This document shows, in pieces, positions 2,555 to 59,885 of a stretch of DNA of 64,000 nt. The stretch is taken from the NCBI GenBank assembly GCA_963849325.1, contig CAWKHF010000012.1, forward strand, positions 320,001 through 384,000, in the 5' to 3' direction. The stretch's first letter is position 1. Every line of letters begins with the position of its first letter. The DNA comes from an uncultured Planctomycetota bacterium. Lineage in GTDB: Bacteria; Planctomycetota; Planctomycetia; Gemmatales; Gemmataceae. The position numbers and the translations under genes were made by a program. The notes beneath the pieces were generated by a model that was not told the origin of the DNA, searched no databases, and saw only the letters and a program-made list of their open reading frames with translations.

Positions 2555-3637
2555 ATGCTTCACGCGATGATCATGGCGGGCGGCGGCGGCACGCGGTTCT
2601 GGCCGCGCAGCCGGCAGCAGCGGCCCAAGCAGTTCCTCGCCCTGGGCGGCGACCGCACGCTGTTGCAGCAGGCCATGGACCGCATCGAGGGGCTGCTGCC
2701 TGCCGAACACGCCTGGGTCATCACCGGCCAAGCCTATCAGGCGGAGACGGCCCGGCAACTGCCGCAGCTGCCGGCCGATCACATCGTCGGCGAGCCGTGC
2801 GGCCGCGACACCGCCGCCTGCATCGGCCTGGGCGCGGCCCTGATCGCCCGCCGCGATCCGTCGGCGATCATGCTGGTGACGCCGGCCGATCACGTCATCG
2901 AGCCGGTGCACGAGTTCGAGCGCGCGGCCCACGTCGCCGCCGCGATGGCCGAGGAGCACCCCTCCGCCCTCGTCACCTTCGGCATCCCGCCGACGTTCCC
3001 GTCCACCGGCTACGGCTACATCCATCGCGGCCCGGAGGTCGGCCAGCGCCAGGGCGTCAGCGTCTTCCGCGTGCAGGCGTTCGAGGAGAAGCCGCCCGCC
3101 GACCGCGCCGAGCAGCTTCGTCGCCTCCGGCGAGTACTACTGGAACAGCGGCATCTTCGTCTGGCGGGCCGCCACGGTGCTGGAGGAACTGCGGCGACAG
3201 CAGCCGAAGCTGCACGACGGCGTGCGGCGCATCGCCGACGCCTGGGACACGCCGCAGCGCGACGCCGTGCTGCGCCAGCGAATACGAGGCGATGCCGAAG
3301 GTCAGCATCGACTACGCCGTCATGGAGCACGCCCGCGAGGTGCTGGTGGTCAAGGCGCCGTACCGCTGGGACGATGTCGGCAGCTGGCTGGCCCTGGAAC
3401 GCATGCACCCGCAGGACGCCGACGACAACACCGTGCTGGCCGACGCACTGCGGCCTGAAGACGAATCATTGCGTCATCGTCGGCGACGCCGGCCGGCTCA
3501 TCGCCACCATCGGCGTGGAGAACCTGCTCATCGTGCAGGACGGCGACGCCACGCTGGTCGCCGACCGCCGCGACGAGGGCACGGTCAAGCAGCTGGTCGA
3601 GCTGCTGAAAAAGAAAGGGCTGGAGCAATACCTGTGA
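2555..3637 (+). CDS. manC: Mannose-1-phosphate guanylyltransferase, frameshifted
   Basis: IMAGGGGTRFWPRSR..PKQFL, EPCGRDTA, TGYGYI, WNSGIF, SIDYAVME and WDDVGSW motifs. Confidence 0.9.
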   Translation: MLHAMIMAGGGGTRFWPRSRQQRPKQFLALGGDRTLLQQAMDRIEGLLPAEHAWVITGQAYQAETARQLPQLPADHIVGEPCGRDTAACIGLGAALIARRDPSAIMLVTPADHVIEPVHEFERAAHVAAAMAEEHPSALVTFGIPPTFPSTGYGYIHRGPEVGQRQGVSVFRVQAFEEKPPADRAEQLRRLRRVLLEQRHLRLAGRHGAGGTAATAAEAARRRAAHRRRLGHAAARRRAAPANTRRCRRSASTTPSWSTPARCWWSRRRTAGTMSAAGWPWNACTRRTPTTTPCWPTHCGLKTNHCVIVGDAGRLIATIGVENLLIVQDGDATLVADRRDEGTVKQLVELLKKKGLEQYL

Positions 3638-5041: not shown

Positions 5042-5220
5042 CCTCTTACTCCTTCCCTCTGGTTTGCTCACGCCTGGAGCAACCTGTCGCGGTTGCCGCG
5101 CAACCTTCACGGACTCGCGCAGCCTATCCCTATTTTCCCTTGTATCCCGTCCGAAACCATCTCGTCAAGGAAAGAATGATGTTCCGCGTTCCGTTCCGCG
5201 GAGATTGGGTGCTGCGCGGT

Positions 5221-8128
5221 TCACCAGCGTAATGGCTTCTGCCACGCTTCCTTGAGGGCCGCCAGCGGTGCCCAGATGATCCATTCGCCGCTCGCCCCGG
5301 CGATGCGCAGGCGCGGTTCCTCGCACGTCTGCCCAATTGGTGTCAACGGGGTGTCACTTCCGAAGCACGAGCGGAACGCGGCCTCCTTGTCGGGTCGCAC
5401 CTCGACGACGAAGCGCGTCGTCGATTCGCTGAACAGCAGCACGTCGTCCGGCAGGCGCGGCATCGCCCAGGCGCGTCACGTCGGCGCCGATGCCGCCGGC
5501 GAAGGCCATCTCCGCCACGGCGACGGCCAGGCCGCCCTCGCTCAGGTCGTGGCACGAACGCACCAGACCGGCCATGATCGCCTCGTGCAGCTTGCGGAAG
5601 ATGCGCGGCGCCAGTTCCAGGTCCGGCCGCGGCACCGTCCCGCCGTCGAGTCCGTGCACGAGGTGGTAGTGCGAGCCGCCCATCTCGTCCCTGCGTCGCG
5701 CCGACGAGGAACAGGAGGTTGCCCGGCTCCTTCAGGTCCATCGTCACGCAGCGGCGCACGTCCGGGACGCGGCCCAGGGCGCTGATGAGCAGCGTCGGCG
5801 GGATGACGATGTTGCCGGCCGCCGGAGTGATATTCGTTCTTGAGGCTGTCCTTGCCGCTGATGAACGGCATGCCGTAGGCCAGGGCCACGTCGCGGCACG
5901 CCTCGGCCGCGCGCACCAGCGAGCCGAGCACCTCCGGCCGGTCGGTGTTGCCCCAGCAGAAGTTGTCGAGCAGGGCGATCCGCGACGGGTCGGCGCCGAC
6001 GGCGACGACGTTGCGCACCGCCTCGTCGATGGCGGCGGCGGCCATCGCGTAGGGGTCGAGGTCGCCGTAACGCGGGTTGATGCCGCAGCCGACCGCCAGG
6101 CCGGTCCACGAGCCGAGCACCGGCATGACCACCGCCGCGTCGCCGGGGCCGTCGTCGTCGACGCCGACCAGCGGCTTGACGACGCTGCCGCCCTGGACCT
6201 CGTGGTCGTACTGGCGGATGATCCATTCCTTGCTGCACACGTTCGGCGAGGCGAGGATTTTCAGCAGGACGTCGTTGAAATTCTCGGGGCGAGCGGGGGG
6301 CGTCAGCCCCCTGTTGGGTGTCAACAGGGGGCTGACACCCCCCGCTCGCCAAGTCGCCTGGCGCACCACCGGCGGCCGGCCGTCGTGCAGGAAGTGCAGG
6401 TCGAGGTCGGCGACCTGCTGCCCCTGGTAGAACAGCCGCAACCGGCCGGTCGCCTCGAAACGGCCGAGGACCGTCGCCTCCACGTCTTCGCCGGCGCACA
6501 GTTCCTGTAACTGCGGCCACGTCTCGGGCGGCACGGCCAGGACCATGCGCTCCTGCGCCTCGCGAGATCCAGATTTCCGTGTACGACAGGCCGGCGTACT
6601 TCAGCGGCGCCTGCTCGAGCTGCACCGCCGCGCCGAGCTCCTCGCCCATCTCGCCGACGGCGGAGCTGAAGCCGCCGGCGCCGCAGTCGGTGATGGCGTG
6701 ATACAGCCCCTGGTCGCGCGCCTGCAGCAGCACGTCCAGCAGCTTCTTCTCGGCGATGGCGTTGCCGATCTGCACCGCGCCGCCGCTGACCTTCTCCGAC
6801 TCCGCGGTCAGCTCGACCGAGGAGAACGTCGCGCCGTGGATGCCGTCGCGGCCGGTGCGGCCGCCGACGGCCACGATCAGGTCGCCGTCGCGCGGCTCCT
6901 TGTGGCAGCGGTCCACCGGGAGCAGGCCGACCGTGCCGCAGTAGACGAGCGGGTTGCCGAGGTAGCGGTCGTCGAAGCAGACGGCGCCGTTGACGGTCGG
7001 GATGCCCATGCGATTGCCGTAGTCGCGCACGCCGGCGACGACGCCCTTCATCACCTTCAGCGGGTGCAGCACGCCCGGCGGCAGCGACTCCGGCGGCGTG
7101 TCCGGCGGCGCGAAGCAGAAGACGTCGGTGTTGCAGATCGGCTTGGCCCCCAGGCCGGTGCCGAGCGGGTCGCGGATGACGCCGCCCAGGCCGGTGTTGG
7201 CGCCGCCGTAGGGCTCGATGGCCGACGGATGGTTGTGCGTCTCCACCTTGAAGCAGACGTGATAGCGGTCGTCGAAGCGCACGACGCCGGCGTTGTCCTC
7301 GAAGACGCTGACGCACCAGTCGTCGGCGCCGAGCCGGCGGCGGACCTCCTGCGTGGCGGCGAAGATCGTCTCCTTGAGCAGGTTGTCGTAGCGCCGAACG
7401 CTGCCGTCCTCTCGCTGGAACTCGATGCGGCCCTTGAGCGTCTTGTGCGAGCAGTGCTCCGACCACGTCTGGGCCAGCGTCTCCAGCTCCACGTCGGTCG
7501 GGTCGCGGCCCAGCTCGCGGAAATGGGCCTGGATGGTCCGCATCTCGGCGAGGCTGAGGGACAGCTGGCCGTCGCGGCTGAGCTTCTCCAGGGCCGCGTC
7601 GTCCAGGTCGCGCAGCGGCACGGTGACGAGCCGGAAGCGAGTAATCGGAGCCGAGGCTCAGGTGATCCAGGGTCAGCGGGCCGGCGACGACCTGCTCGAT
7701 CGCCTCGTTGGCGAGCACCTTGCGGAAGAGGACGGCCCGCGCCTCGGGCGGCGCCGGCGGGCCGAAGTAGCGGCGGAAGGTGCGCACCGACGCCGACGGG
7801 GATGCCGAGGTCGCGGGCGGCCTCGACGACGCTCAGCGCGGTCGGGTCCATCACGCCAGGCTTGAGCAGGACCGTGGCCAGGTGGTCGGGCGCAGGTGTT
7901 CGTTGAGGGTGCCCAGCCGGCCGGACTCGACGAGCGGATCGACCAGCAATTCGTCGGCCAGGCGCTTCGCCTGCGGCGCGACAACTCGCCCTCGACGAGA
8001 TAGCCGCGCGCCGTGCCGGTGATCCGCTCGGCGCCGTCGCCTGTGTGCGTCAGCAGGTCGTATTCTTCACCGACGCGCCGGCGCTCCCCATCGTCGCCCC
8101 TGGGCTGAATCTCGATCTCCCAGAACAT
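5221..8128 (-). CDS. purL: Phosphoribosylformylglycinamidine synthase subunit PurL with N-terminal extension, frameshifted
   Basis: [62 protein letters not shown] and HDLSEGGL motifs. Confidence 0.95.
6288..6350. repeat. 63-bp palindromic element lying in frame inside purL
   Basis: 29-bp arms with 1 mismatch and a 5-nt loop; encodes [20 protein letters not shown]. Confidence 0.8.
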
Positions 8129-8173
8129 GCTGTCGTCTCCGTCGCACTCCGCCGCAGGCGGCTGGGTTGGATC

Positions 8174-8776
8174 TCACAAGAACCAGAGCCGGAAGACGTA
8201 GATACCGATGAAGGCGCCCACGAACAATCCGCTGATAATCAGGCCGCTGGTGGCCACGATCATGTGATGGCCGCGCGTGCGTAAGGCGGCCGCGGCCTGT
8301 CCCAGGCCGAGCACGCCCAATAGCGCGGCGCCCAGGATCAGGACCAGGGCCAGCAGGGCGACGGCAATCGTCATGCCCACGGCGGCGACGGTGATCGCCG
8401 CAATCACTTCGCCGACGACCATCAGGACCCAGGCGCCGATGCCCATTGCCAGGCCGAGGACGGCCTGGCGGAAGTGGGCACGGGCCTGCTCGGGAGCGGC
8501 CTCGCGGGATTCCAGAGCACGCTCGACGCAGGCGGCACACAGGACCTGGTCGCACCAGCGTGTGCGGCAGACTTCGCAGAAGTAATTGCCGCAACGGCCG
8601 CAGGTGCCGACCGCCTCCTGTCCGGCGTGAACGGCGCAGGCGCCCTCGCCTTCGCGGGCCGGTCGGCCGGTGCGACCCGGCGGTTCGTACAGCGGATCGC
8701 GGCAGTTAGGGCAGCGCGCACCGAGGCGCTCGCGGTCAACCGGCAAGGGATAGTCACAGGAGGGACAACGGTTCAT
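8174..8776 (-). CDS. Zn-ribbon/B-box zinc-finger membrane protein
   Basis: CPSC, CPNC, CAVH...CGRCGNYFCEVC...CAAC, then hydrophobic TM segments. Confidence 0.8.
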   Translation of the reverse strand: MNRCPSCDYPLPVDRERLGARCPNCRDPLYEPPGRTGRPAREGEGACAVHAGQEAVGTCGRCGNYFCEVCRTRWCDQVLCAACVERALESREAAPEQARAHFRQAVLGLAMGIGAWVLMVVGEVIAAITVAAVGMTIAVALLALVLILGAALLGVLGLGQAAAALRTRGHHMIVATSGLIISGLFVGAFIGIYVFRLWFL

Positions 8777-8779: not shown

Positions 8780-9519
8780 CTAGCCCTGCCATTGCTTGAC
8801 GATGCTGAGCAGGGCGATCGCCGACGACCACACGACGCCGGCCAGCCCCGCCGTCACGCCGGTCATGGCCAGTCCCCTTCCGGCCAGGTGTGCCTTGCCG
8901 TCGATCTGCCGCAACGCCAGCCAACCGAGGACCAGCTCGCCGCTCGCCAGGACCAGGGCGATCAGACAAAATACCAGCGCCACGACGACCCCATTCTCCA
9001 GGGTCATGTAGACACCGATGGCCATGAAGGTCAGGAACAGGCTGACCACGGTGCTGACCAGAGCGAGGATGAAGGCGAGGAGGGCGAGCGGCGCCAGGCG
9101 GGCCGGCCGACTCAGGCCGCGGACGCGGAAGTTCTTGCACGGCCCGCACAGTGTCTGCCCTTGCAATGCGACCACACAGGCGGAGCAAAACGAGGCGTGG
9201 CAGGCGTCGCAGGTCGCTTCCCTGGGCGTCTCGTCGTGGTTGAGACAGTAAGCGGGGTTGGGACGGTGTCGGGCGCGCACGCGGCGCGGCGGCAAGGCTT
9301 CCGGCTCGGGCCAATCATCCTCGGCGGTCGGCCGGGGGTGCGCGGCCGAGACGACGGCGGCATCGGCTGGGCCTCCTCCGGTTCCGGCTCGGGGACCGTG
9401 CTCGACCACGGCACGCGATTGCCGTGGCCACATTCGCAGAAAACGAGCGTGCCGGACAGGTGCTCGGCCCGGCCGTGGCGCTTTCCGCATTGCTTGCAGG
9501 CGAACCAAATATGTCTCAT
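8780..9519 (-). CDS. Zn-ribbon/B-box zinc-finger membrane protein (DUF4190-like C-terminus); one frameshift; start codon supplied by the integrated element
   Basis: MRHIWFACKQCGK...FCECGH joined by a frameshift to CLNH...CDACHASFCSAC...CGPC and TM helices ending GRGLAMTG. Confidence 0.75.
9490..9507 (+). repeat. attL core direct repeat TTGCTTGCAGGCGAACCA
   Basis: Identical to 19116-19133. Confidence 0.9.
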
Positions 9520-9522
9520 AAT
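9494..9522 (+). promoter_or_regulatory. Putative sigma70 promoter of the integrase overlapping attL
   Basis: TTGCAG-N17-CATAAT; SD AAGGAGG at 9545-9551 before ATG 9558. Confidence 0.5.
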
Positions 9523-9557
9523 AGATCGTCCTAGCCGCTCCCGAAAGGAGGAATAGA

Positions 9558-11216
9558 ATGGGCGACATGCCAAGACGCGCGTACTCCTACCTTCGGTTTT
9601 CCCACCCCAAGCAGGCTACCGGGGACACCATCCGAAGGCAAGAAGAATGGACCGCGAGCCTGTGCCGGCGGCACAGCTGGTATCTCGATGACACCCTACG
9701 CTTTGCAGACAAGGGGAGGTCCGCGTTTCACGGCGGACTCAAGGCGCTAGGGCAGTTCCGCGACCTGGTGCGACGCGAACGCATCGCGCCCGGCTCGGTG
9801 CTCGTCGTGGAGGTGCTCGACCGCATCTCCCGCGAGGAGGTTGATGATGCTTACGACATCTTCCGAGAGATCATCCGGGCCGGCATATGGATCGCTACGC
9901 GGGAACCGGAGCGCATCTATACCCGCGAGACGTGTGCTGGGAACATGCTCAATCTGCTGGAACCGCTCTTCATCTTTGCACGTGCCCACGATGAGAGCCG
10001 TGCAAAGTCTATGCGTATCCGGGAGGCGTGGGTGCATCAGCACCGAAAAGCGAGAGAGGAAAAGCAGCCGATCCAATCGCGGCCCCCTTGGTGGCTAAGG
10101 AAGGGGCAGCACGGTTATGAGTTGATCCCAGAGCACGCCGAGGCGATACGGCAGATGCGAACGCTCTGCCTATCCGGGCACGGGTACACCCAGACCGCAG
10201 GGGAATTGGCCCGGCGGCTGTTTCGCCCGCCCGGACGGAACTGGTGTATCGAGACCATCCGAAGTACGCTGAAATCTCGTCGCACGCTCGGCGAGCACCA
10301 GCCGGGACACAAGATCAAAGGCCGGCTGGTGCCGGACGGACCACCGATCCAGGGATACTACCCGACTATCTTCACTCCGGAGGAGTGGGAGGCCATACAA
10401 GGGGCGATCCAGCGCAGACAACGCAACAAGCCGGGACGGCCAGCGAAGGAATGCGCCAACCTCTTTACCGGGTTGGTATTCGAGGCGAATTCCCGGCTAC
10501 CTATGTCAAAGGGGTCCGCACGGCCGCAGCATGGGGGGAAGAAATACAACAGCCTCAAGTGTAGGAACGCTTATTATGGGATGCCGCTCTGCCGCGTTCC
10601 CTACGAGTCGCGTAGGGGACAGCCGGGATTTGAGGGGTGCGTGTTAGACACCATCGCGATGCTACGTCCCCAGGACGTGCTTGACGACGAGCGGCGATCC
10701 GACGAGCGGGAGCACCGCATCGACGCACTGACCAAACGTGTAACGGCCCTGGCACATCGCCGGGGACAACTGCAGGCGGCGGCAGCCGACCCAGAGCAGG
10801 ACGCCGCAGACATTCTACCAGCCCTGGCGACAGTACGTCGGGAGTTGGAAACGGCGGCGAAGGAGTTGAATGCCCTCAAGCTCGAAAGCCAGACAGGCCG
10901 GGCGGAAGCGCTAGCAGAGTGCCAGACGCTACAGGAACTGCGGCAACGCGCCCAGGGCGAGGAGCGGCAGGAGTTAGACCGCCGCATCAAGGCGGCGCTA
11001 CCGTCGATCATGGAATCCATCTGGATACAGTGCCAGAGAGTATCTACCCGGCATCAGATCGTACACATCCAGATATGGCTACACAGCGGCTCCATGCGCT
11101 ATGTGCAGATGCTGCCACCGAACCTCCACGGCGTCAAGCCGTGGCAGCTGGAGGAACACGACCTACGCAAGGGGCATTATGTAGGCGACGCTACAAATAT
11201 GGCCCAACCGGCGTAG
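9558..11216 (+). CDS. Large serine recombinase (resolvase + recombinase domains + coiled coil)
   Basis: AYSYLRFSHPKQATGDTIRRQ catalytic Ser motif, DKGRSAF, LVVEVLDRISRE, ESRAKSMR, YYPTIFTPEEW, NLFTGL. Confidence 0.93.
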   Translation: MGDMPRRAYSYLRFSHPKQATGDTIRRQEEWTASLCRRHSWYLDDTLRFADKGRSAFHGGLKALGQFRDLVRRERIAPGSVLVVEVLDRISREEVDDAYDIFREIIRAGIWIATREPERIYTRETCAGNMLNLLEPLFIFARAHDESRAKSMRIREAWVHQHRKAREEKQPIQSRPPWWLRKGQHGYELIPEHAEAIRQMRTLCLSGHGYTQTAGELARRLFRPPGRNWCIETIRSTLKSRRTLGEHQPGHKIKGRLVPDGPPIQGYYPTIFTPEEWEAIQGAIQRRQRNKPGRPAKECANLFTGLVFEANSRLPMSKGSARPQHGGKKYNSLKCRNAYYGMPLCRVPYESRRGQPGFEGCVLDTIAMLRPQDVLDDERRSDEREHRIDALTKRVTALAHRRGQLQAAAADPEQDAADILPALATVRRELETAAKELNALKLESQTGRAEALAECQTLQELRQRAQGEERQELDRRIKAALPSIMESIWIQCQRVSTRHQIVHIQIWLHSGSMRYVQMLPPNLHGVKPWQLEEHDLRKGHYVGDATNMAQPA

Positions 11217-11357
11217 GCAACTGACCGCGAGCGCACAGTCGGCGTAAGCATCGGGAGGCCCGGAAAACCGCCGGGCCTTCGCCATCTCGGCGACCCAGGA
11301 ATCCCCATCCCAGAAGAAGCCGAACGAAGAGAGGACCACGAAGCAACCGCCAAGCAT
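11163..11357 (-). CDS. Small hypothetical protein, convergent with and overlapping the integrase 3' end
   Basis: SD GAGGGG before ATG 11357; FFWDGDSWV..AKARRF. Confidence 0.45.
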   Translation of the reverse strand: MLGGCFVVLSSFGFFWDGDSWVAEMAKARRFSGPPDAYADCALAVSCLRRLGHICSVAYIMPLA

Positions 11358-11628
11358 GATGCACCCCCTCGGTAGCAATCATGCACGCGCCACACCGCGT
11401 TTTCGTCACCACATCCTACCAAGCCCAACCAGATTCTCAGGACCAACGCCGGTAACTGTCAAGCAAGGGTAAGAATCCGCAACGCTGGAGCACTCAACCG
11501 CACGACACGGCCTGCCCTAACAACCGGGCTTTCCACACGCTTGTCCGCAACTATCAGTTTGCACCCGACCGGGTAGGTTGTAGTCTTGGTGAGTCCTGAA
11601 CGCTCCCTTACCCACGGCAGAGGTTGAC

Positions 11629-11865
11629 ATGAAACCAAAATTGCTGACCATCGCCGAGGCGAGCAAGAGACTAAACGTGTCCGGCACCACGCTACGGCGG
11701 ATGATCCGCACCGGCGAATTCCCGCCGCCCGTTCGGCGGAACAGCCGCTGGGTCCGTGTCCCGGCATCGGACATCGAAAACTACCTGACCAAACTGGCGG
11801 AACGCCGCCAGACCGAGCAACCCCGACACCAGGCCGACACCACCGGCCGCCAATTGGAGACATGA
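11629..11865 (+). CDS. Excisionase/AlpA-like helix-turn-helix protein (likely recombination directionality factor)
   Basis: LLTIAEASKRLNVSGTTLRRMIRTGEFPPPVR...WVRVPASDIENYL; SD GAGG. Confidence 0.85.
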   Translation: MKPKLLTIAEASKRLNVSGTTLRRMIRTGEFPPPVRRNSRWVRVPASDIENYLTKLAERRQTEQPRHQADTTGRQLET

Positions 11866-11868
11866 ACC

Positions 11869-13114
11869 ATGAAAGCCCGCGTTTTGAAAGCCTTCGACGA
11901 TTGCAAGGCCGGCGACATCATCGACGTGCCGCGAGCCACGAGCAATTTCGCCGTGCAGAGAGGCGATTTGGAGGAAATCAAGGACGCTGAAACCCTACTC
12001 GCGCAAAAGGTCCGTCGCGCGATCGAAAGGCGCACGATCAGGAAAAAAGTCAGGTCGCTGGAGAGGCCCGCGTTGAGCTTCGGCCAGTTCCTGACCCTGC
12101 TAGCCAAGAGTGGAGGCCGCGACTTCCCCGCGCTCGCCCAGAAGGCGGCGCTGAACGAAGCGTCTGGGATCGAGGGCGGTTATCTCGCGCCACAGGGCTT
12201 CGCCAAAACTATTTTCCAGGCCAGCGAGCGGGGCCGAATCCTGCGCCGGAGCTACCCTATTCCCCACGAGCCACCGTGAAGAGTTAATCCCCTTGTGGGA
12301 TATGACAACTCCACAGACGGCCGGCACAACGCCGTTCTTCGGCGGGCTGAAATTGCAGTGGTACGAGGAAGGAGTCGAACCGGCCGAAAGTGAACCGGCG
12401 ACCAAGCAGCTGGCGATGGTCCCGAACTATCTAGGCGCGCTGGTGTTGGCCTATAACGCTTGGCTCGCGGACGCCGCTCGAGGGACCGTAGAAGCGTGGC
12501 TCTTGGCCCTGTTCGGAGAAGCCGTGGCGTGGTACGAGGAATACGGCTTCCTCCAGGGCAAGGGGGCGGGCCAACCGCTCGGCATCCTCAACAGCGGCGC
12601 AACCATCAACGTCAGCCGCGCTGTCGCCGGCGACATCGAGTTCGCCGACATTGGCGGGATGCTCAACAAGCTACTTCCGGAGTCCATCAATCGCTGTTTC
12701 TGGATGTACTCGCCGACCTGTCAAAGCGCCCTGATGCAACTCAAGGACGGCGCGAATCGGGCCGTGATGCTGCAAGTCGGAGCGACGCCCGCCGGACGCG
12801 GACAGTGGACCATCGCCGGAATCCCTGCTTATCCGACCGAGAAGTTGCCAGCCCTAGGGACCAAGGGAGACCTCGTACTCATCGACCCGCGCTGGTATGC
12901 AATCAGTGACTTCATAGCCGAGGAGGGACAGCCGGCGGGCGGCGGTCGTAGCCTAGCCGTAAGTTTCTCTGGCGAGGCGAGTCAGACGGTCTTCACCAAG
13001 AACCAGACGGTCTTTATGATTTCACAGCGCCTCGACGCACGGCCGGTTATCGACAGCCCCATCACCTTGCAGGACGGCGTGACGCAGGTGTCGCCGTTCG
13101 TGGCCCTTAACTAA
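11869..13114 (+). CDS. HK97-fold phage major capsid protein (~414 aa once one extra C near 12262-12265 is removed)
   Basis: GGYLAP, WYEEG..AESEP, FLQGKGAGQPLGILN, LMQLKDG, GIPAYPTEKLPALGTKGDLVLID, FTKNQTVF..QRLDARP, SPFVAL. Confidence 0.88.
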
Positions 13115-13240
13115 GACATTTGGGCTCCGCGAACACGGCGAGGCGACGGATTGCCTAGCCGTGGAGTCGCGCCACGGTGATGCTGAACCTTTTCGTGCAA
13201 TCCACATCGAAAACTACCCGCAAGCCTTGAGGGAGAAGAC

Positions 13241-14215
13241 ATGAGCAGCCTGGCCGACGAAATCATTGCCGCGATGGAAGCGGGCGGAACCAAGAAGGAA
13301 CCCGCAACGTTCGACGAGGTAGACGCTTTCCATCTCCAAAACGAGGCCGAACAAGTGTTGAAGTACCTCCCGCTACTCGGACAAAGCGGCTACCTCGTCG
13401 AGGGCTGGTCGCACCTACTCGCCGGCTTCCCCCGCGTCGGCAAGTCCGAATTACTCTACGCCTGCATGGTCGAATGGTTACGAGCGGGCCAGACCATTCT
13501 CTACTTCACCGAGGAGGGCCGTGAGCTATGGCGGCAACGACTTCAGCGCCAACGAGTACCCGCCGAGGGATTACAACTGGTGTTCGCGCTCGGTGGCAAG
13601 TCCCTGGACCTCCTAACGCGGATGAGGAAGAGTGGGGAGCCTATCGTTGTGATCGACACCATCCGCAGCCTGCAAGTCCTGCCGGCCGACGAGAACGACA
13701 ACGCCGCCGTCGCCCGCGCCCTCGAACCCTGGGTGACTGCCGCACGCGAGATGAGCAAGACCCTGATTCTCAGCCACCATGCCCGCAAGGGAGGCGGCGA
13801 GCACGGCGAGGGCATCTCCGGCGGTCATGCCCTCTTCGGGGCCGTGGACGTGGCCCTGGAAGTCTGCCGCAGTACGACACCGGCTCGGCGGATCATCAAG
13901 GCCCATGCTCGCCTAATCCAGCCCGCCGACCTCCTCTACGAGCGGGACGAGGATGGCAGCCTGGCCGCTCTCGGCGATCCCAGCGGCGTCGGCCTGGCGG
14001 AAGTCGGCCGCCGCATCCTCGACGTGATGGATCACCAATGGGCCAAGACGGCCGACGTACACGACCGCCTGGAGGAACCCCGGCCCAGCGCGGAACAACT
14101 TCGCCTCGCTCTGGCCGCCGAGGCCCGCTGCGGCCGCCTGGAACGCGATCCGCCCATCAGCGTCGCCAACGTCCAGGGCAAGACCACTCGCTGGCGGCTC
14201 CTCGGAGGCGAGTAA
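13241..14215 (+). CDS. AAA/RecA-fold ATPase (RepA/SF4 helicase-like) with C-terminal wHTH-like region
   Basis: Walker A AGFPRVGKSEL, Walker B IVVIDTI, LILSHHARKGGG, ISGGHALFGAVD. Confidence 0.82.
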   Translation: MSSLADEIIAAMEAGGTKKEPATFDEVDAFHLQNEAEQVLKYLPLLGQSGYLVEGWSHLLAGFPRVGKSELLYACMVEWLRAGQTILYFTEEGRELWRQRLQRQRVPAEGLQLVFALGGKSLDLLTRMRKSGEPIVVIDTIRSLQVLPADENDNAAVARALEPWVTAAREMSKTLILSHHARKGGGEHGEGISGGHALFGAVDVALEVCRSTTPARRIIKAHARLIQPADLLYERDEDGSLAALGDPSGVGLAEVGRRILDVMDHQWAKTADVHDRLEEPRPSAEQLRLALAAEARCGRLERDPPISVANVQGKTTRWRLLGGE

Positions 14216-14332
14216 CTTCACTTCCCACCTATAGGAGAGACCCCCTTGTATGTGAGGTGAAGAAAAGTGAAGCGAAGCGTTTACGCTTCACTTTCTTCCC
14301 ACAGTCCCTCTCTTAAGGAGGGAAGTTCAGTT
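14214..14332. other. Large imperfect inverted repeat directly after the helicase-like gene (candidate replication origin)
   Basis: AAAGTGAAGCG/CGCTTCACTTT core; outer arms AACTTCACTTCCCACCTATAGGAGAG vs rc AACTGAACTTCCCTCCTTAAGAGAG. Confidence 0.55.
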
Positions 14333-14363
14333 CATCCAGCGCTCGACACCAACCGGAGGCATC

Positions 14364-14606
14364 ATGTCTGAACTGAAAGACGTTGTAAACAAACTGTGCA
14401 AAGAGCTTGACCGGCTCTTCCACACGCCGGACCTCTTGCACCGCGAGCAAGGTTATCCCAATCTAGCCGAACTTCTGGCTAGCATTAACGCAGGCATCCA
14501 CCGAGCCGCCGACGCTCTCGACCGGATGAACCCGCCGCCACAACCGCCGCCGTTCGTGCCGGAGGGCTTCACGGACGCGGAGTTGCTGGCCGGCAAGGTC
14601 AAGTAG
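14364..14606 (+). CDS. Hypothetical protein (80 aa, helical)
   Basis: SD GGAGG, clean ORF co-oriented with the element core. Confidence 0.65.
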   Translation: MSELKDVVNKLCKELDRLFHTPDLLHREQGYPNLAELLASINAGIHRAADALDRMNPPPQPPPFVPEGFTDAELLAGKVK

Positions 14607-15198
14607 TGTCCGTCCGCCGCACTCACGGCCCCAAGCGATGTCGTCCAGGCGTCGTTTCGGGGCCGATTCCTGCACCGCCAGCAGGCCAAGCTGCACCTTT
14701 CCTGTCGTCCCGCTGCACACCCTCGACAAAACCTCCACAACCGGCATCGCAGCCTTTTCTTGTCCATATACCGATCAAATGTTCACTAAAGCGATAAACA
14801 AGAGGAGTGAAGGTAGATCGTGTTGCCGGGATGGCCGCGTTTTCCGGGCTGGGAGGGTAGGTTGCGTCCGGCAGCTGGGAGGCGCGTGCGGGGGTGCGTG
14901 CGGCCCCTGCGCCGCCCTCCGCGTCCCGGCGGCCGTGGCCCGCACGGACGCTCTGGGCGGCTCCGGGCCTACGGTGCGCCGGGACGTATCCGCCGCCCCC
15001 TGCGGCCGTCTGTCCCGCTGCCCTCACGGCGACGGACAGACGGCCTGCGGGCGGCTCGGTGGTGCGTGTGTGTGTGTGTGTGCGGGGCTGTACGCCCCCT
15101 GGTGTCGCGCAGCGACACCGCCGTCGCTGCGCGACGGCTGCCGGCCCTTACAGGCCGGCGGGGGCTGCGGTGTGCGTGCTGCGGGACACATCGCGGTG

Positions 15199-15404
15199 AG
15201 ACCCTGCCTTGCGTGCCCGGCTGCCTGCTGCTGCCGGCCCAGGTGGTGCGCGACATCACGGCTGTTCGTGTTGATGGCCGGCAGCAGCAGGCAACTCGGG
15301 CTCGTGTGGGGCAGACCGTGCCTTGCGGGCGCACCGGCATCTGGCTGCGGCCCAGGTAGTGCGCGACATCCCGGTTGTTCGAGCTACGGCCGCAGCCAGA
15401 TGCC
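15199..15404. repeat. Two tandem 114-bp-period structured units: conserved leader and loop, different perfect stems
   Basis: Stems 15222-15239/15276-15293 (18 bp) and 15336-15352/15388-15404 (17 bp); loops 26/29 identical. Confidence 0.85.
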
Positions 15405-15543
15405 ACCACGTCTACATTCGGCAACCGCATCCATGCGGGGTTCGAGGCGGGCAGGACGCCCGCCAGCTGGCCCATGACGACGAGGATGCGGCTCCAGCAG
15501 ACCCAAGGCCACGGGTGGCCTTGGGCTGCTGAGCTTCCTACGG

Positions 15544-15757
15544 ATGCAGGGACGCAGCCTGCGGAGCATTGCCGAGGAGGAGGGGGTGAGTCAGGAACAG
15601 GTACGCAAGGATTCTCGATCCTGCTGTCAACCAGTTGACACCTGACCTACCACCCGCCCAGGTGCTCGGCAAGGACGGCAAGGCGTATCCGGCGGACAAC
15701 TCCGCACGCAAGCCCGCGCTACCCGGTCCCGTCGTGGACAACGCCGCCGCTCCGTAG
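15544..15757 (+). pseudogene. HTH fragment with GKDGKxYP motif (resembles the C-terminal part of phage ParB-like proteins); one frameshift
   Basis: MQGRSLRSIAEEEGVSQEQVRKD / LDPAVNQLTPDLPPAQVLGKDGKAYPA; absent from the ORF track. Confidence 0.6.
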
Positions 15758-16463
15758 TCGGCTCCTCAGCATTTTCTTATTTATAAGACCGCTAGCACCC
15801 GTGCTTGCCTATCTTCGTTCCGTTCCCCCACGTCATCACGCCCAGCCTTCCCGCTGTCACGCCCTCTCGTGTTCACCGCGTCGCGTCATGGGCCATCCTG
15901 GCCCATAGTCGCGTCGCGGCGGGCCATCCTGGCCCTCAAGCTGTGGGCGGGTGCCCCGCCCCTGTTTGTCTCCGCGTCACTCGCGGTCGGGTTGTGACGG
16001 TGTATCGTGACCCTACCCGTCCTGCTGCTACCGCCGTGCCCTAGCAGATGCTTACCCGGTTTCCACGGCGTCGTAAGACAGACTAGCCTATGAGGTCCGC
16101 AGAGCACACCCGGCCAGACAGAAGCATTTTGAGGTCGTTCGTGTCGTACTGGCTGACGAGTCGTCACGTCCTCCCCCGCCCGCGACAGATTCCGCCAGTG
16201 TCGCGGGCGGCCTTTTTGGCCCCCGCGACACTGGCGGCTTCCGCCCAGGGGGGCGGAAGTGCGGTAGTGCGTAACGGTGTGTCGTGCTGTGACGCTCAGC
16301 ACGTCGTCTCGCCCTCCCCCCCGCGTAAGAACGCCGCCGGAGCGCGGGTTGTCCCCGCGTCCGGCGGCGTCGCAGCCCTTGCAGGCTGCGAAGAAGCTAC
16401 CAGGCGACGTCGTGACAGCCCTATTCGATGCTGCGAGGTTGACGGGTCATCATGCGCTGCTCT

Positions 16464-16509
16464 TTTCTTTTCTTTTCTCTTTTGAGTACAAAAGAGAAAA
16501 GAAAAGAAA
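16464..16509. repeat. Perfect 21-bp pyrimidine/purine palindrome with 4-nt loop
   Basis: TTTCTTTTCTTTTCTCTTTTG-AGTA-CAAAAGAGAAAAGAAAAGAAA. Confidence 0.9.
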
Positions 16510-16587
16510 CAAAAGAAAAGAGAAAACAAAGACAGACACTCACACGCCCCAAGGGACAGGATGACGGTCAAACCCGTGAAATGATCG

Positions 16588-16760
16588 CGTTTTGTCCAAG
16601 TGCCCTAGGTGCTGTTGTAGCAGGTATGTCAAGGTAGGTTGATTAAAAGCAATTTTGCTGTCAGAGAAGTTGTACGGTCAATGAAACTAGGCAAAATTGC
16701 TTTTAATCATTCCACCTTGACTACCTGCTATTACATCATCAGGGGCACTTGAACAAAACG
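16588..16760. repeat. AT-rich ~70-bp imperfect inverted repeat with 32-bp spacer
   Basis: Arms 16588-16658 and 16691-16760, about 60/71 matched by hand, innermost 19 bp perfect. Confidence 0.9.
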
Positions 16761-17069
16761 GGTTAGACTTGCACGGGGAGGCGAGTGCGACCCGCCATTA
16801 CACGCCGGGTCGGAGAGGGAGGAGGAGGAGGAGGAGGAGTGGGGTGGGGGTGGCGCGGGCCGCAAGCGGCTCATATGTTCATGTGTTCATAGTTCATCGT
16901 GGGTCGTTGGCCGGTCTCCCCGCTGGGTGCCGCTGCGCTGGGCTGGGATGGGTGGTTACGGTCGGGGGCTGGGCGGCGGCCGCCTCCGGCGGCCGCCCGG
17001 TGTCTCCTTGTGCTCTCCGCCTTGTCCGTGTTTTTGTGCGGTTTTTGCGGGTTTTTCTGCATTTTCCTC

Positions 17070-17099
17070 TTGACAGCTACATGTCGTTTGTGGTAGAAT
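17070..17099 (+). promoter_or_regulatory. Near-consensus sigma70 promoter of the element's cargo operon
   Basis: TTGACA-N18-TAGAAT with TGn extended -10; helically phased T-tracts upstream. Confidence 0.75.
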
Positions 17100-17177
17100 C
17101 GCTGTCTGCAATGGCGATGGGGGGCGGTTGGCCCCGCCCCCCATCTAACCCGAACCCCGTGCTAGCGGAGTCGAGTC

Positions 17178-17507
17178 ATGTCTAAGGGTATCCGTTCGTC
17201 GTCGGTCTGTCTATTCCACATTACCCCCCGCCGCAATCTCCAATCGATCTACAAGTTCGGCTTGCTGCCGTGCTTCGCTCGGGGCGTGTTGCGTGCCGTC
17301 TGGCTGTGCTCGGCTTCCCGCCGCCGCTGGGCCGCCGTCCACGTCGAGGACCAAAACTGGACTTCGGACATCGTTGTCATCCGCCTCATCCTGCCGCGTG
17401 CCTGGCTCCGCCGCTTCCGTCGCGGCATCTGGCATTGCTCGCAGCCGATCCCCCCCTCGTGCATTGTGTCCGTCTCCGCCCCGTCCCCGCTGTCCCCCGC
17501 CGCCTGA
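17178..17507 (+). CDS. Small ADP-ribosyltransferase-fold protein (KptA/Tpt1 C-domain or DUF952-like)
   Basis: LFHITPRRNLQSIYKFGLLP, AVWLC, VVIRL, GIWHCSQPIPPSCI; SD GGAG. Confidence 0.6.
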   Translation: MSKGIRSSSVCLFHITPRRNLQSIYKFGLLPCFARGVLRAVWLCSASRRRWAAVHVEDQNWTSDIVVIRLILPRAWLRRFRRGIWHCSQPIPPSCIVSVSAPSPLSPAA

Positions 17508-17564
17508 ACTCTTGGCCCGCCCGATCCGCCGCCCAGCGGATCGGCCTTCTTGGAGTATTCGGAT

Positions 17565-17936
17565 ATGTCTACTCGTTCATATCGTCTGTGCTTGCGCATC
17601 GACAACGGCGTGGAACGCCACTACGCCGTCCGCCCGCTGGCAGCTGCCGACCTGGAAACGCCGTTCCTGTGCGGCTATGCCCTAACGGAACGCACGCAAA
17701 ATTCACACCCGACCTACCATGTCCGCCTTGCCGCCGATGGCATTGTCAACTGCTCGTGTCCGCAGTGGAACAAGGCCGAGACCTGCAAGCACGCCGACGC
17801 CCTCGTGGCCGCCGGCCTGCTGCCGGTGCGGCTCGTCGAAGTGCTCGCCGCCACCCGCCACTTGCTCGACCTCGCCGAAGCGAAGATCGCCGCCATGCCC
17901 AAGCCCCGATCCCGCAAGAAGAAGACGGACAACTGA
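17565..17936 (+). CDS. SWIM zinc-finger protein
   Basis: YHVRL..CSCPQWNKAETCKH (CxC...CxH); SD GGAG; basic tail. Confidence 0.8.
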   Translation: MSTRSYRLCLRIDNGVERHYAVRPLAAADLETPFLCGYALTERTQNSHPTYHVRLAADGIVNCSCPQWNKAETCKHADALVAAGLLPVRLVEVLAATRHLLDLAEAKIAAMPKPRSRKKKTDN

Positions 17937-17988
17937 TCGTCGCCACGCGGACCGGCCGCAAGGCCGGTCCCCTCGACACGGAGGAAAC

Positions 17989-18342
17989 ATGGCCCGACAC
18001 CGCAGACCGAACACCGCCGACGACCGCCGCCAGCTACTGGCCGCTGCCGCCGCCGTCCTCGGTGTCGCCGCCGACGCAGTTATTCTCGTCGCCGGCGCCG
18101 TCGAGATCGTCCGCCCCGAGCCGCAGCCGGTTCGTCCTGGCCGACTGCCCGAGGGCATGAGCGCCTACGATGCCGCCATTCTGGGGGCGCTCGCTGACAG
18201 GCCATTGTCAGCCCAGCAGATCGCCCACCGCAGCGGACACCGCCACAACAGCTACTTTCGTGGCCGTCTCGCCGCTCTTGTCGAGGCAGGCCACGTCCGA
18301 CAAACCCGCCGAGGGTACAGTCTCGGCGGGCCTGGCAGGTAG
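17989..18342 (+). CDS. Winged-helix DNA-binding protein
   Basis: AILGALADRPLSAQQIAHRSGH..SYFRGRLAALVEAGHV; SD GGAGG. Confidence 0.7.
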   Translation: MARHRRPNTADDRRQLLAAAAAVLGVAADAVILVAGAVEIVRPEPQPVRPGRLPEGMSAYDAAILGALADRPLSAQQIAHRSGHRHNSYFRGRLAALVEAGHVRQTRRGYSLGGPGR

Positions 18343-18416
18343 CAGCTGGCAATCGTCTACTTGTTCCTGCCGGCGGGGCGGGTATCCTCGCCGGCATCAC
18401 TCACAGGAGGTTTCCC

Positions 18417-18635
18417 ATGCTAACCATCGAACGCCGCGCCTTCCTCGAAGCGATCGTGCTTGCCGCCCTCATCCCCAACTGGCAGCGAACCAACCCCTTC
18501 GAGCCACCCGAGCAGACCCGGCAACGCCTTGCCGTCGAGGCGCTCAAGATTGTCGATTCGTTCCTACGCGTGACCGGCGACGCGAACTTGCCGCCCCTCG
18601 GCGTGCCGGCCAACGACCCCAGCGTTCCCTTTTGA
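18417..18635 (+). CDS. Hypothetical protein ending NDPSVPF
   Basis: SD CAGGAGG, clean ORF. Confidence 0.65.
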   Translation: MLTIERRAFLEAIVLAALIPNWQRTNPFEPPEQTRQRLAVEALKIVDSFLRVTGDANLPPLGVPANDPSVPF

Positions 18636-18708
18636 ACGATCCGCTCCGCGCCCTCGGCGACGTTCGCCCAGGGCCGGGCGCTTCCCATCGCCCACGGAGG
18701 TTTGCACC

Positions 18709-19038
18709 ATGAAGAAGCTCGTTGCCGTCGCCGTAGCCCTCGCCGCCCTGGGCGCTGGTCGCGCCGAGGACAAGACCGCCACCCAGAAGCCCGACGAGCC
18801 AGCCCCGGTCATCGTCAAGACCCAGCTGCCCCGGTACTTCAAGCAGCTCGGCTTGACCGACAAGCAGCGGAAGGAGGTCTACAGGGTCCGTGCTGGCTAC
18901 GCCGCCAAGATCGCCAAGCTCAACGAGGAGATCGCTACCTTGCGGTTGAAAGAGAAGGGCGAGGTCGAGGGCGTTCTGACCGAGGCTCAACGGAAACGCC
19001 TCCAGGAGATGCGGGCCGGCTCCGATTCCAAGAAGTGA
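18709..19038 (+). CDS. Secreted small helical protein, Spy/CpxP (LTxxQ)-like
   Basis: Signal peptide; LGLTDKQ and VLTEAQ motifs; SD GGAGG. Confidence 0.75.
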   Translation: MKKLVAVAVALAALGAGRAEDKTATQKPDEPAPVIVKTQLPRYFKQLGLTDKQRKEVYRVRAGYAAKIAKLNEEIATLRLKEKGEVEGVLTEAQRKRLQEMRAGSDSKK

Positions 19039-19115
19039 CACACCAGGCATCGACCGGCCGGGGCAACTCGGCCGGTCCCCATAAGAGGGCAATGATGAGA
19101 ACAAAGTCCCAAACC

Positions 19116-19133
19116 TTGCTTGCAGGCGAACCA
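19116..19133 (+). repeat. attR core direct repeat TTGCTTGCAGGCGAACCA
   Basis: Identical to 9490-9507. Confidence 0.9.
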
Positions 19134-19135
19134 GA

Positions 19136-19924
19136 TCATGATGTTTTCTCGCTCGAACGCACGGCGTCACCGGGACGTTCGCCGAGGACCGCCGCCATTT
19201 GCAGCACGAACTTCTCGGCGCTCTCGTACTCGCCCGGCGTCAGGTCGAGGCGCTTCTCGAAGAACTGGGCGGCGGCCTGGAACAGCCGGGCGCGTTCGAG
19301 GACGCGCAGCTGATCGCGGCGCAAGCACAAGTCGAGCAACGTCTGCTTCTGCTCGCGGTCGAGCTGGACGAGGCGTTGACGGAGCAGCGCCAACCGCTGA
19401 CGGTCGGCCTCGCTGCGCGCGTCGGGCAGGGCCAGGATCGGCTGGACGTTGCGCTCGACGTGAACCACGAGGGTATCCGCGGCCAGGTCGCCGAGGCGGC
19501 GCTGCTCGCGATTGCCGGCGGCGACGGCGAAGCCGAGCAGTCCCGGACCCAGAGGCAGCGGCACGGGCAAGCTGTCGGCGACGCGCAGCAGATTGCGAAC
19601 CGCCGACTGAAAGAAGGTGATGGACGTGCCGCGCCACTGGATGACGCGAATGCCGAGCAGGTACTTGCCCGGTGTTTGTCCGTGCCAGAGCCATTCAAAA
19701 AAGATGAAATAACCCCACAGGACCACGAACTGTCCGATCACGATCACCGCCATGCCCAGGCCGGGCCGGCCGAGCGTGAGGACGCCACCGACGACGGCGC
19801 CCATGACGATCAGCAGCAGCACCGCCAGCGCATCGATCAGCCAGGCCAGGAAGCGCGAACCCAGCCCGGCGACGCGGTAGCGGAACGGCACTTTCTCGGT
19901 GGTGAGCACCTCATGGCGGATCAC
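19136..19924 (-). CDS. RDD family membrane protein
   Basis: AGLGSRFLAWLID, GQTPGK..GIRV, RRLGDLAADT; GTG start overlaps the SpoIIM stop. Confidence 0.9.
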   Translation of the reverse strand: MIRHEVLTTEKVPFRYRVAGLGSRFLAWLIDALAVLLLIVMGAVVGGVLTLGRPGLGMAVIVIGQFVVLWGYFIFFEWLWHGQTPGKYLLGIRVIQWRGTSITFFQSAVRNLLRVADSLPVPLPLGPGLLGFAVAAGNREQRRLGDLAADTLVVHVERNVQPILALPDARSEADRQRLALLRQRLVQLDREQKQTLLDLCLRRDQLRVLERARLFQAAAQFFEKRLDLTPGEYESAEKFVLQMAAVLGERPGDAVRSSEKTS

Positions 19925-20919
19925 GCCTGGTCCTCCCGCGCCGCCGCTCGGCCCCAGCCGAGCAACAGAATGTAGGCCAGAAACAGCAGGGCGAAGACGG
20001 CGGCGACGGCCAACTTCAATCCCTTGCCGAGAAACCAGTCCGGCGCCCGCGCCACGCCAGCCTCCAGACACGCAGCCACGGCCAGAAGCGGCACACAGCC
20101 GAATAGCATCAGCACCGACTGCTTGCCTAGGCGAGCCAACTCCTCGCGCCGCGGCCACGGCCGCGCTCGCAGGAAGCCCTGCGCCAGCACGAAGCCGGCC
20201 GCTCCGCCGATGAGGCAAGCCGGGATCTCCAGCACGCCATGCGGCAGGATGCCGGTGGCGTAGGCCGTCAGCTGATGGGCCTCGGCGAAGACGGAGCCGA
20301 GAGCGCCCAGAAGAACGCCATTATAGAACATCAGCCAGGCCGTGCCGAGTCCGAGCGTGATGCCCAGGGCGAAGGCGACCAGGCTGACGCTGACGTTGTG
20401 CGTGAACAAAAAGCTCGAAAACGCGGTCAGGTCATCCGTCGTGTACATGGGCGCGGCCTGCTCCTCGCCCTCGGCCGGCGGCTGGATGGTCGGCATGTCC
20501 GTGGGCAGCAGGTAGGCGCGGGCAACCTCCTTGTCGTAGGTGCAGGCCAGGTAGCCGAAGACGGCGCCCGCCGCGAACAGCAGCGTGGCCAACAGGAAGT
20601 GCGGCAGGTAACGACGAAAGACGGCCGGGTAGCCCCAGAAGAGATAACGCAGCAAGCCCCGCACCTCGACGCGCGTTTTGCCATAAATGGCGAGGTAAGC
20701 GCGGGCAACCAAATCATTCAAATAGCGCTCGGTGGCCTCGCCGCTGACGAAGGTCTGGGCCTGGTTTAAGTCCGAGGCGGCGCGGCGATAGAGGCGGCCG
20801 AACTCGACGGCTTGCTCGTCGTCCAGTGAGGCCAGACCGCTGCCCTCGACACGCTGAAGGATTGCTTCGAGGCGTTTCCAGTCGGGGCGGCGCTGCCGGA
20901 GAAACGTCGCCAAATCCAT
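19921..20919 (-). CDS. Stage II sporulation protein M family membrane protein
   Basis: LYRRAASDL, FTHNVSV, NGVLLG, ILPHGVLEIPA. Confidence 0.9.
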   Translation of the reverse strand: MDLATFLRQRRPDWKRLEAILQRVEGSGLASLDDEQAVEFGRLYRRAASDLNQAQTFVSGEATERYLNDLVARAYLAIYGKTRVEVRGLLRYLFWGYPAVFRRYLPHFLLATLLFAAGAVFGYLACTYDKEVARAYLLPTDMPTIQPPAEGEEQAAPMYTTDDLTAFSSFLFTHNVSVSLVAFALGITLGLGTAWLMFYNGVLLGALGSVFAEAHQLTAYATGILPHGVLEIPACLIGGAAGFVLAQGFLRARPWPRREELARLGKQSVLMLFGCVPLLAVAACLEAGVARAPDWFLGKGLKLAVAAVFALLFLAYILLLGWGRAAAREDQA

Positions 20920-58316: not shown

Positions 58317-58441
58317 CGAGCAGAGCGATACTGGGAGTATCCATGAGATTCAGACATCCATTCTGCAAAATGAGGATTGATGAGCGAAGGAAGGTGGAGG
58401 GGCCATCCAGCCCTCGTTCGCTCATCCATCATCAATCCGTT

Positions 58442-59607: not shown

Positions 59608-59885
59608 GTTTTACCTCCAGGGTGCTCTGCTTCCGTGCAGCGAAGGCTTCCAGCCCGTTACGTTGTTTGGTCTGCGTGTGCCCGCCTTCCCCGGGCCGGG
59701 GAGGGACGGCACACCGTCCAAACGGAAAAAGGTCGAGTCCATTTCGGGACAGGCCGATGGGGGACCACATCAGCCCGAGTGTCGCTCTGGTTGACACTCG
59801 TATTACCCAGCGTCGTCGGCCGACGGGGGCGTGACGCCGGATCCCGTGCCTAATGCGAGGGCGTTTCGCCGTGCCCGCGTATGGG

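Follow-up and report, generated by a model that had tools for sequence, protein, structure and literature searches.

A 9.6-kb integrative element in the 5′ end of a Gemmataceae zinc-ribbon gene that brings a substitute in-frame start codon

The locus, the borders of the element and its gene content

The window analysed here is a stretch of 64,000 nucleotides from the genome of an uncultured Gemmataceae bacterium (GCA_963849325.1, contig CAWKHF010000012.1, positions 320,001 to 384,000), and all coordinates are those of the window. The host target gene, which is conserved in Gemmataceae, is located on the minus strand (8780–9519); as assembled, it falls into two frames owing to a 1-nt indel somewhere in 9326–9348. 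The domains of its product are an N-terminal zinc ribbon, a Pro-rich linker, a B-box-like Cys cluster and a DUF4190-like membrane tail, with all Pfam matches below the curated cut-offs. The co-oriented host genes downstream (5220–8776, minus strand) are a zinc-ribbon paralogue (8174–8776), a 151-aa ORF (7673–8128) and purL, which reaches to 7621 and is split by assembly indels. Going downstream from the target gene, the successive gaps are 3 nt before the paralogue, 45 nt before the small ORF and 51 nt before purL. The RDD-family host gene that lies upstream on the same strand (19136–20218) runs directly into the zinc-ribbon gene in element-free relatives.

The sequence TTGCTTGCAGGCGAACCA is present on the plus strand at 9490–9507 and again at 19116–19133, forming a direct repeat with 18 of 18 positions identical. 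The first copy, the attL core, covers codons 3–8 (W F A C K Q) of the host gene in the minus-strand reading, and the second copy represents the attR core. The identity reaches 9510 and 19136, respectively, giving 21 bp with one mismatch (20/21), and this mismatch, A/G on the plus strand, corresponds to ATT/ATC in the sense of the gene. The 18-mer was counted twice in the window even when two mismatches were allowed (expected 0.00 in 100 dinucleotide-preserving shuffles), and these are its only two places in the whole 8.16-Mb genome. The GC content falls from about 0.69 to 0.60 at position 9500, on entering the element.

The minus strand at attL reads ATG AGA CAT ATT TGG TTC GCC TGC AAG CAA TGC GGA AAG, which corresponds to MRHIWFACKQCGK. 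The substitute ATG from the left arm of the element (9517–9519, minus strand) thus gives MRHIWF in place of the native MIWF; it is preceded by AGGA, a weak Shine-Dalgarno-like 4-mer on the same strand (9529–9532), 9 nt upstream. The Ile codon derived from the element (9508–9510, minus strand) is ATT, the native one being ATC; several relatives, among them genome G006, have ATT natively at this place. At attR, the minus strand reads ACA TCA TGA overlapping ATG ATC TGG TTC GCC TGC AAG CAA, with the ATGA at 19136–19139. The native start is left there as an orphan, heading a 50-codon remnant ORF (18987–19139, minus strand) that encodes MIWFACKQ followed by element sequence and still overlaps the RDD stop codon by ATGA. 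The 18-bp repeat, both minus-strand readings and the ATGA junction had been described in an earlier note on this DNA, made from the sequence alone, and all of these statements proved to be right.

The gene adjoining attL encodes a large serine recombinase of 552 aa in an intact frame (9558–11216, plus strand), divergent from the host gene; its start is 39 nt from the new ATG. Large serine recombinases are about 450–700 aa long, with a PF07508 domain after the catalytic domain, and a PF13408 zinc ribbon with an embedded coiled coil is typical of them. The catalytic domain was recognized at residues 8–163 (Resolvase, PF00239, E 2e-11) and PF07508 (Recombinase) at residues 191–287 (E 1.5e-10). 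The protein contains the motif YLRFSHPKQ, in which the nucleophile Ser was assigned by eye. No PF13408 zinc ribbon was reported for this protein even at E ≤ 10; scattered Cys residues and weak coiled-coil-type matches at residues 381–499 were found. The match to the phage integrase family PHROG 95 extends over residues 3–511 (6e-54), and the nearest phage homologues are those of the Burkholderia phages JC1, Bcep176 and Bcep22, with 32–36% identity over the N-terminal 55–67% of the protein.

Farther into the element, on the plus strand, lie the genes for an HTH_17 or excisionase-like protein of 78 aa (11629–11865), for an HK97-type major capsid protein (12155–13114; Phage_capsid, 1e-22) which shares about 30% identity with its counterparts in Streptomyces and Caulobacter phages, and for an AAA_25 ATPase (13241–14215), possibly a replication helicase or a primase-associated protein. 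Ten further element ORFs had no family match, and no portal, terminase or protease was recognized among the element ORFs. Beyond the last element ORF lies a GC-rich hairpin with an 11-bp stem (19052–19077, z −4.0), possibly a terminator, although it has no U-run behind it and was not called by the terminator scan. Phage satellites (PICI and capsid-forming PICI-like elements) are about 10–15 kb in size and carry an integrase, regulatory or excision and replication modules and some capsid genes, with an incomplete virion set. By its size of 9.6 kb and its capsid gene, the element resembles either such a satellite or a prophage that has undergone strong reduction.

The direct repeat flanking the insert could in principle be a target-site duplication made by a transposase instead of a recombinase core. 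We find this scarcely credible: no transposase is encoded among the element ORFs, the serine recombinase gene abuts the end of the element, and the identity goes 3 bp past the 18 bp with a synonymous change, unlike in a duplication. Usual target duplications are moreover much shorter than 18 bp. The att sites of large serine recombinases are short (about 40–50 bp), with partial dyad symmetry around a 2-bp crossover; the best dyad symmetry of the rebuilt attP (11/24 at the AG 9498–9499) was weak, at about the 95th percentile of the background.

We infer that the recombinase made the insertion. The 9.6-kb integrative element consists of 9508–19115 and one copy of the core, and its own large serine recombinase would have inserted it into an attB covering host codons 3–8, attP and target sharing 18 bp (21 bp with one mismatch). 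The crossover probably took place inside the 18 bp. Such recombination would strand the native start and the RDD-coupled junction at attR as the 50-codon remnant, and at attL it would join the gene body in frame to the ATG-AGA-CAT-ATT of the element, a formal repair of the frame that lengthens the N-terminus by two residues.

The native N-terminus and the integrity of the target gene

When the left flank was used as the query of a DNA search, an orthologue of the gene was recovered from eight of the ten other genomes of the genus, and seven same-genus loci (L002, L003, L004, L005, L006, L007 and L008) cover the gene. Both window flanks were found side by side, without the element, in six of these seven loci (L002, L004, L005, L006, L007 and L008). 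In L002, the RDD stop codon abuts the ATG directly, in L006 and L007 there are about 27–30 nt between the RDD gene and the zinc-ribbon gene, and in L005 the RDD gene is followed by a repeat spacer of about 85 nt; in L003, another gene than RDD lies upstream. All seven loci begin with [A/G]TG AT(C/T) TGG TTC GC., and the same-genus junction follows the pattern [A/G]TG AT(C/T) TGG TTC GC. TG. AA. CA. TGC, which encodes MIWFACKQC. The empty site predicted in the earlier note, in which the RDD gene runs straight into MIWFACKQCGK, was thus recovered in element-free relatives.

The comparison was extended to the family by means of a degenerate site pattern, which was matched by 24 of 252 family genomes including that of the window. 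Among the 23 other matches, 22 were true orthologues and one was spurious. In all 22 orthologues, [A/G]TG is followed by a single codon (ATC, ATT and once CTT), which stands before TGG or, in one orthologue, before GGG (Gly). ATT is the native second codon in nine of them, and with a site of the G006 type the identity would be 21/21. The succession ATG AGA CAT ATT before the Trp codon occurred only in the window among the 252 family genomes. A similar picture was obtained with protein homologues, of which the best 120 of 529 with E ≤ 1e-10 were inspected (a few carry Gemmataceae source names): 116 begin with MI-W, one with VI-W and one with MV-W, so that 118 of the best 120 have two residues before Trp. 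The two remaining sequences of this set have no N-terminus, and one of them is the window's own gene call of 171 aa.

These comparisons establish the insertion with its exact borders and the native N-terminus of the target gene. Since MRHIWF is unique to the window and the native form is MIW, the ATG at 9517–9519 and the ATT codon are element DNA. The earlier note had placed the element in codons 3–8 of a host gene to which it supplies a replacement start, and the borders and the element-free relatives agree in this respect; its suggestion that Ile is kept by a synonymous change also holds, as the arm codon is ATT and the native one ATC. The same note had named orthologues beginning with MRHIWF and not adjacent to RDD as the observation that would speak against it: no orthologue begins in this way, and RDD adjoins the gene in six of the seven same-genus loci.

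The integrity of the gene body is a separate matter. In relatives, the target protein has 240–246 aa in one frame. In the window, the frame starting from 9519 ends after 135 codons and the remainder is found in another frame (8780–9586), the 1-nt indel being placed by alignment in the linker. One explanation would be that the host gene is a true pseudogene with a real frameshift, i.e. that the gene harbouring the element is decaying and that the rebuilt start serves no purpose at present. The assembled sequence does need two frames, and the public gene call here is the mentioned C-terminal fragment. On the other hand, when compared with three relatives, purL carries three single-base insertions (at 5693, 5814 and 6562) within 2.4 kb of this window, in every case a G added in front of a C, and its domains are spread over at least three frames. 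The gene of a GT4 glycosyltransferase (58425–59610) is likewise split. The assembly consists of 14 contigs with 84.7% completeness; the target gene is whole in six of seven relatives, and the only other broken orthologue (in G007) also comes from a few-contig assembly, which is 78% complete. As purL in the same window carries three similar indels, the frameshift at 9326–9348 is probably an assembly error, and we consider a true pseudogene very unlikely. Whether the host gene stays intact, as stated in the earlier note, is nevertheless uncertain, the gene being frameshifted as assembled.

Relatives of the recombinase, expression of the operon tail and selection of the new start

Homologues of the recombinase were found at E ≤ 1e-30 in 50 of 201 family genomes, the best ones (51% identity) in G135 and in G109, where the gene is broken into two parts. 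The 201 family genomes yielded no close relative either of the recombinase or of the junction. In the species-level genome collection, the search gave one locus with 28% identity at best and no close relative, and no relatives of the recombinase were found in the viral contigs or in the metagenome contigs. An exact 20-mer of arm and core had no match in the metagenome contigs. Similarly, when the first 50 residues of the target protein were searched by tblastn against 30 family recombinase loci, the window alone scored below E 0.05. The element is a singleton in every collection searched (family genomes, species-level genomes, viral and metagenome contigs).

The recombinase genes of G135 and G109 are not located at the zinc-ribbon gene; each of them adjoins the 5′ border of a host gene pointing away from it. 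In G135, the homology to four congeners lacking the element sets in about 50 nt before the start codon of a DUF1015 gene, and the native upstream region has therefore been replaced by element DNA. In G109, the recombinase gene is about 90 nt from the 5′ end of the tRNA-Trp gene, the first one in a Trp-Thr-Arg cluster. That three of three elements are found at 5′ borders is suggestive of a habit of the lineage. No direct repeats longer than 12 bp were detected around the G135 and G109 elements, whose far ends were not found. A 9-mer shared by the arm of the window and that of G135 (ATGAGACAT / ATGTCTCAT) was judged to be a coincidence, its orientation and its distance to the recombinase gene being different in the two arms. 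A further clade, with 33–37% identity to the recombinase, adjoins a C-terminal DUF3362 fragment of a Radical_SAM_N/DUF3362 gene. The idea that this DUF3362 clade carries a replacement 3′ end was dropped, as no second DUF3362 fragment was present within about 16 kb of the recombinase gene of G148.

A broader reading can be built on these loci, in which the recombinase and its two 51% relatives form a lineage specialised for 5′ borders of host genes and the attP arm next to the integrase gene acts as a two-way expression module, serving the recombinase in one direction and providing a promoter, RBS or start codon for the severed host gene in the other. We regard it as rather unlikely. If it were true, a planctomycete phage satellite would reversibly regulate an operon tail including purL.

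The insertion separates the target gene and the downstream tail including purL from the RDD promoter by 9.6 kb. The distance from RDD to the target gene in relatives is generally 0–30 nt (apart from the spacer of L005), and the element genes mostly converge on the transcription coming from upstream, i.e. from the RDD side. No promoter-like site facing the host gene was found in 9300–9900 by a consensus scan with a 9/12 threshold, nor in 9400–9900 at a looser 8/12, although scans of this type may miss promoters of planctomycetes. The two junctions were also scanned for consensus promoters and terminators, with no sites at the thresholds used. Because of the short RDD gap in relatives and the lack of a facing promoter-like site, the rebuilt frame may be untranscribed. 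The statement of the earlier note that purL belongs to the downstream co-oriented genes is in agreement with our data: it has the same orientation, and all four relatives checked share the gene order between the zinc-ribbon gene and purL. purL is normally indispensable. A reason for selection based on purL is, however, speculation.

The separation of the tail from its promoter also allows the element to be viewed as a reversible switch (‘active lysogeny’), integration uncoupling the zinc-ribbon genes and purL from the RDD promoter and excision restoring the ATGA-coupled operon. The recombinase frame is intact, the cores are identical and the genes are tightly packed on one strand. Precisely excising, gene-interrupting serine-recombinase elements are known, as described for SPbeta/spsM and skin/sigK, and SpyCI in the 5′ end of mutL acts in this way according to the passage on it in a streptococcal survey (PMC4701971). 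Nonetheless, neither an attP nor an attB form was found in this genome or in the metagenome contigs, promoters inside the operon tail are possible, and a switch has no need of a rebuilt start. We thus give the switch only a small chance.

The question remains of how the start codon in the left arm came to be in frame. An in-frame ATG within three codons and before any stop occurs by chance at 2.8–3.7% of positions (in the element or in the window), a post hoc figure, and the frequency falls to 0.2–0.5% of positions, likewise post hoc, if a Shine-Dalgarno-like 4-mer at the right distance is included. When any start codon before a stop within 20 codons is allowed, about 40% of positions qualify. 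The left arm may serve another purpose as well. A weak promoter-like site, TTGCAG-17 nt-CATAAT (9494–9522, plus strand, 8/12), ends 36 nt before the start codon of the recombinase gene; read on the opposite strand, its CAT is the new ATG. It may be the recombinase's own promoter, with CATAAT as a −10 box, and it is possible that the same bases serve both uses, start codon and −10 box.

In the resulting alternative, the in-frame ATG is a by-product: the arm is fixed by the −10 box of the recombinase promoter and/or by the attP half-site, the match of the frame is luck, and the gene together with the operon tail is silenced by a polar insertion. The position of the new start within the promoter-like site fits this view, as do the promoter-like sites scoring at least 9/12 (9–10) in the equivalent place of the arm in four of six DUF3362-clade elements and in both 51%-identity relatives (L015 and L029). 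Five of the six DUF3362-clade arms read through an in-frame ATG that is unable to restore a whole gene, no promoter-like site faces the host gene in the window, and some start before a stop is easily found, as the 40% figure indicates. Yet the site in the window itself scores 8/12 only, and the density of matches of this quality is 1.4 per kb for the window and 3.0 per kb for the element. Moreover, an ATG within three codons, the kept Ile codon and AGGA 9 nt upstream are found together where 0.2–0.5% of positions would be expected, and with 118 of the best 120 homologues having two residues before Trp, a near-native rebuild is a specific outcome. We therefore hold the by-product explanation to be possible but doubtful.

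We infer, from the sequence, that translation starts at 9519. The kept Ile codon and the almost invariant N-terminal length among homologues support selection, and the chance that the in-frame start has been kept by selection in order to limit the damage to the host is, in our view, slightly better than even, on the evidence of a single instance. The whole of the best explanation (an insertion made by the recombinase, a frame rebuilt by the arm of the element and an in-frame start kept by selection) appears fairly probable to us.

Comparison with known systems

To our knowledge, few genetic tools and almost no described mobile elements are available for Gemmataceae. The locus provides this family with a small element that encodes a capsid protein and with a defined attB/attP pair. 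The element-free relatives serve as a direct control, and compared with them the locus shows that the 5′ end of a target can be rebuilt, and not merely split, by an element of the serine-recombinase type. For annotation, it is a warning that the called start of the target gene is foreign DNA and that assembly indels break real genes.

Preservation of a target gene by an attP look-alike of its end is well known from phage 21 and e14 at the 3′ end of icd and from integration into tRNA genes. In these cases it is the 3′ end that is copied, and there is no start codon or expression signal to replace, in contrast to the 5′ end rebuilt here.

Large serine recombinases with an attB in a coding sequence and precise excision restoring the gene are described for SPbeta/spsM (PMC5499854) and skin/sigK (PMC5025042). 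As described there, these elements interrupt the reading frame in its middle, so that the gene does not function until they excise, and they bring no replacement end, unlike the element described here. SpyCI is a satellite prophage whose integration into the 5′ end of mutL, the first of several co-transcribed genes, controls their expression (PMC4701971). The likeness consists in a small satellite-like element at the 5′ end of a gene that heads co-oriented genes; the difference is that SpyCI silences mutL and relies on growth-phase excision, and the passage describing it in PMC4701971 includes no rebuilt start.

Among streptococcal ICEs, rebuilding of 5′ ends is reported for those that have ftsK, ebfC and rbgA as targets and insert at the 5′ end of the gene (Ambroset et al. 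2016, PMC4701971). The passage on 5′ ends itself names no integrase type; we take these ICEs to be tyrosine-integrase elements, since according to the same survey all insertions of its 29 serine-integrase ICEs disrupt genes. In comparison with the streptococcal cases as they are presented in that passage, the N-terminus is altered here by two residues and the gene is not the first one in its operon. A non-exhaustive keyword search in open-access text found no paper on a serine-recombinase element that rebuilds a 5′ end or supplies a start codon, nor one on a mobile element of comparable kind in Gemmataceae.

A close parallel is offered by the islands and prophages with dusA-specific integrases, which, in the words of the paper, ‘characteristically’ replace the 5′ end of dusA, the new N-terminus being argued there to keep the protein functional (Farrugia et al. 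2015, PMC4482086). These islands likewise supply the 5′ end of their target. They use a tyrosine-type integrase, are found in Proteobacteria and make up a large family known from more than 200 genomes (PMC4482086), whereas a large serine recombinase, Gemmataceae and a single instance are concerned here, and the target is not dusA but a gene of unknown function. The element is a clean example of the known 5′-end-rebuilding strategy and not a new kind of system.

Insertion sites of related recombinases

The two closest relatives of the window's recombinase, each with 51% identity to it, both border a host gene on its 5′ side. In G135 (C36; L015/L069), the recombinase locus lies approximately 50 nt upstream of the ATG of a DUF1015 gene, which is where the homology to element-free congeners stops. 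In G109 (C11; L029/L070), the neighbour is a cluster of three tRNA genes that opens with tRNA-Trp, and approximately 90 nt separate the recombinase from the 5′ end of this tRNA gene.

Six further recombinases (L016, L017, L019, L021, L022 and L025) from six genomes of different genera, which are 33–37% identical to the window's recombinase, were found next to another gene. The same DUF3362 fragment (..PFDIATCMYYTG..) adjoins the recombinase at all six loci (at about 1100–1500 in each); the six have an insertion site in common, which lies within the DUF3362 gene. A promoter-like site matching at 9 or 10 of 12 positions is present in four of their six arms.

Two DUF3362 copies were also found in the window's own genome (L074, G000:C8:53000-68000), at about 3131–3560 and 9571–9947 of the locus, on one strand. 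Both correspond to the C-terminal part of a Radical_SAM_N/DUF3362 gene and are separated by 6.3 kb; the gene body is contiguous with one of them. This arrangement has the look of a further insertion in which the 3′ end was duplicated. At E ≤ 1e-30, the contig contains no homologue of the serine recombinase.

Neighbourhood of the zinc-ribbon target gene

The target gene is followed directly downstream by a paralogue-like gene (8174–8776, minus strand), which starts 3 nt after the target gene's stop codon. Its product has a hydrophobic tail, matches the B-box weakly and contains two zinc-ribbon motifs of the CxxC type. In a single relative (G009:C8, L005, about 1410–1494), the spacer between the RDD gene and the zinc-ribbon gene is filled by two copies of a tandem repeat of approximately 26 nt, GCCAGCCCGCAGCGCCAGCAAGGGAG.

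Indels and a palindromic repeat in purL

Compared with three relatives, purL contains one-base insertions at 5693, 5814 and 6562, each an extra G before C, which leave its coding sequence spread over three or more frames. A GT4 glycosyltransferase gene (58425–59610) is likewise split into two overlapping frames. Together, these sequence features suggest that the assembly carries systematic indel errors.

The purL reading frame stays open across a near-perfect palindrome of approximately 64 nt (6287–6354; stem 29 bp, −75 kcal/mol, z −9), which is flanked by the first AIRS_C domain on one side and the second AIRS domain on the other. The palindrome unit has dozens of matches on both strands in four relatives, all of which carry palindromic inserts of variable length at the same purL spot. 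The palindrome has the appearance of a REP/MITE-like repeat that is spread across the genome and that the coding gene accommodates in frame. It may resemble the Rickettsia palindromic elements.
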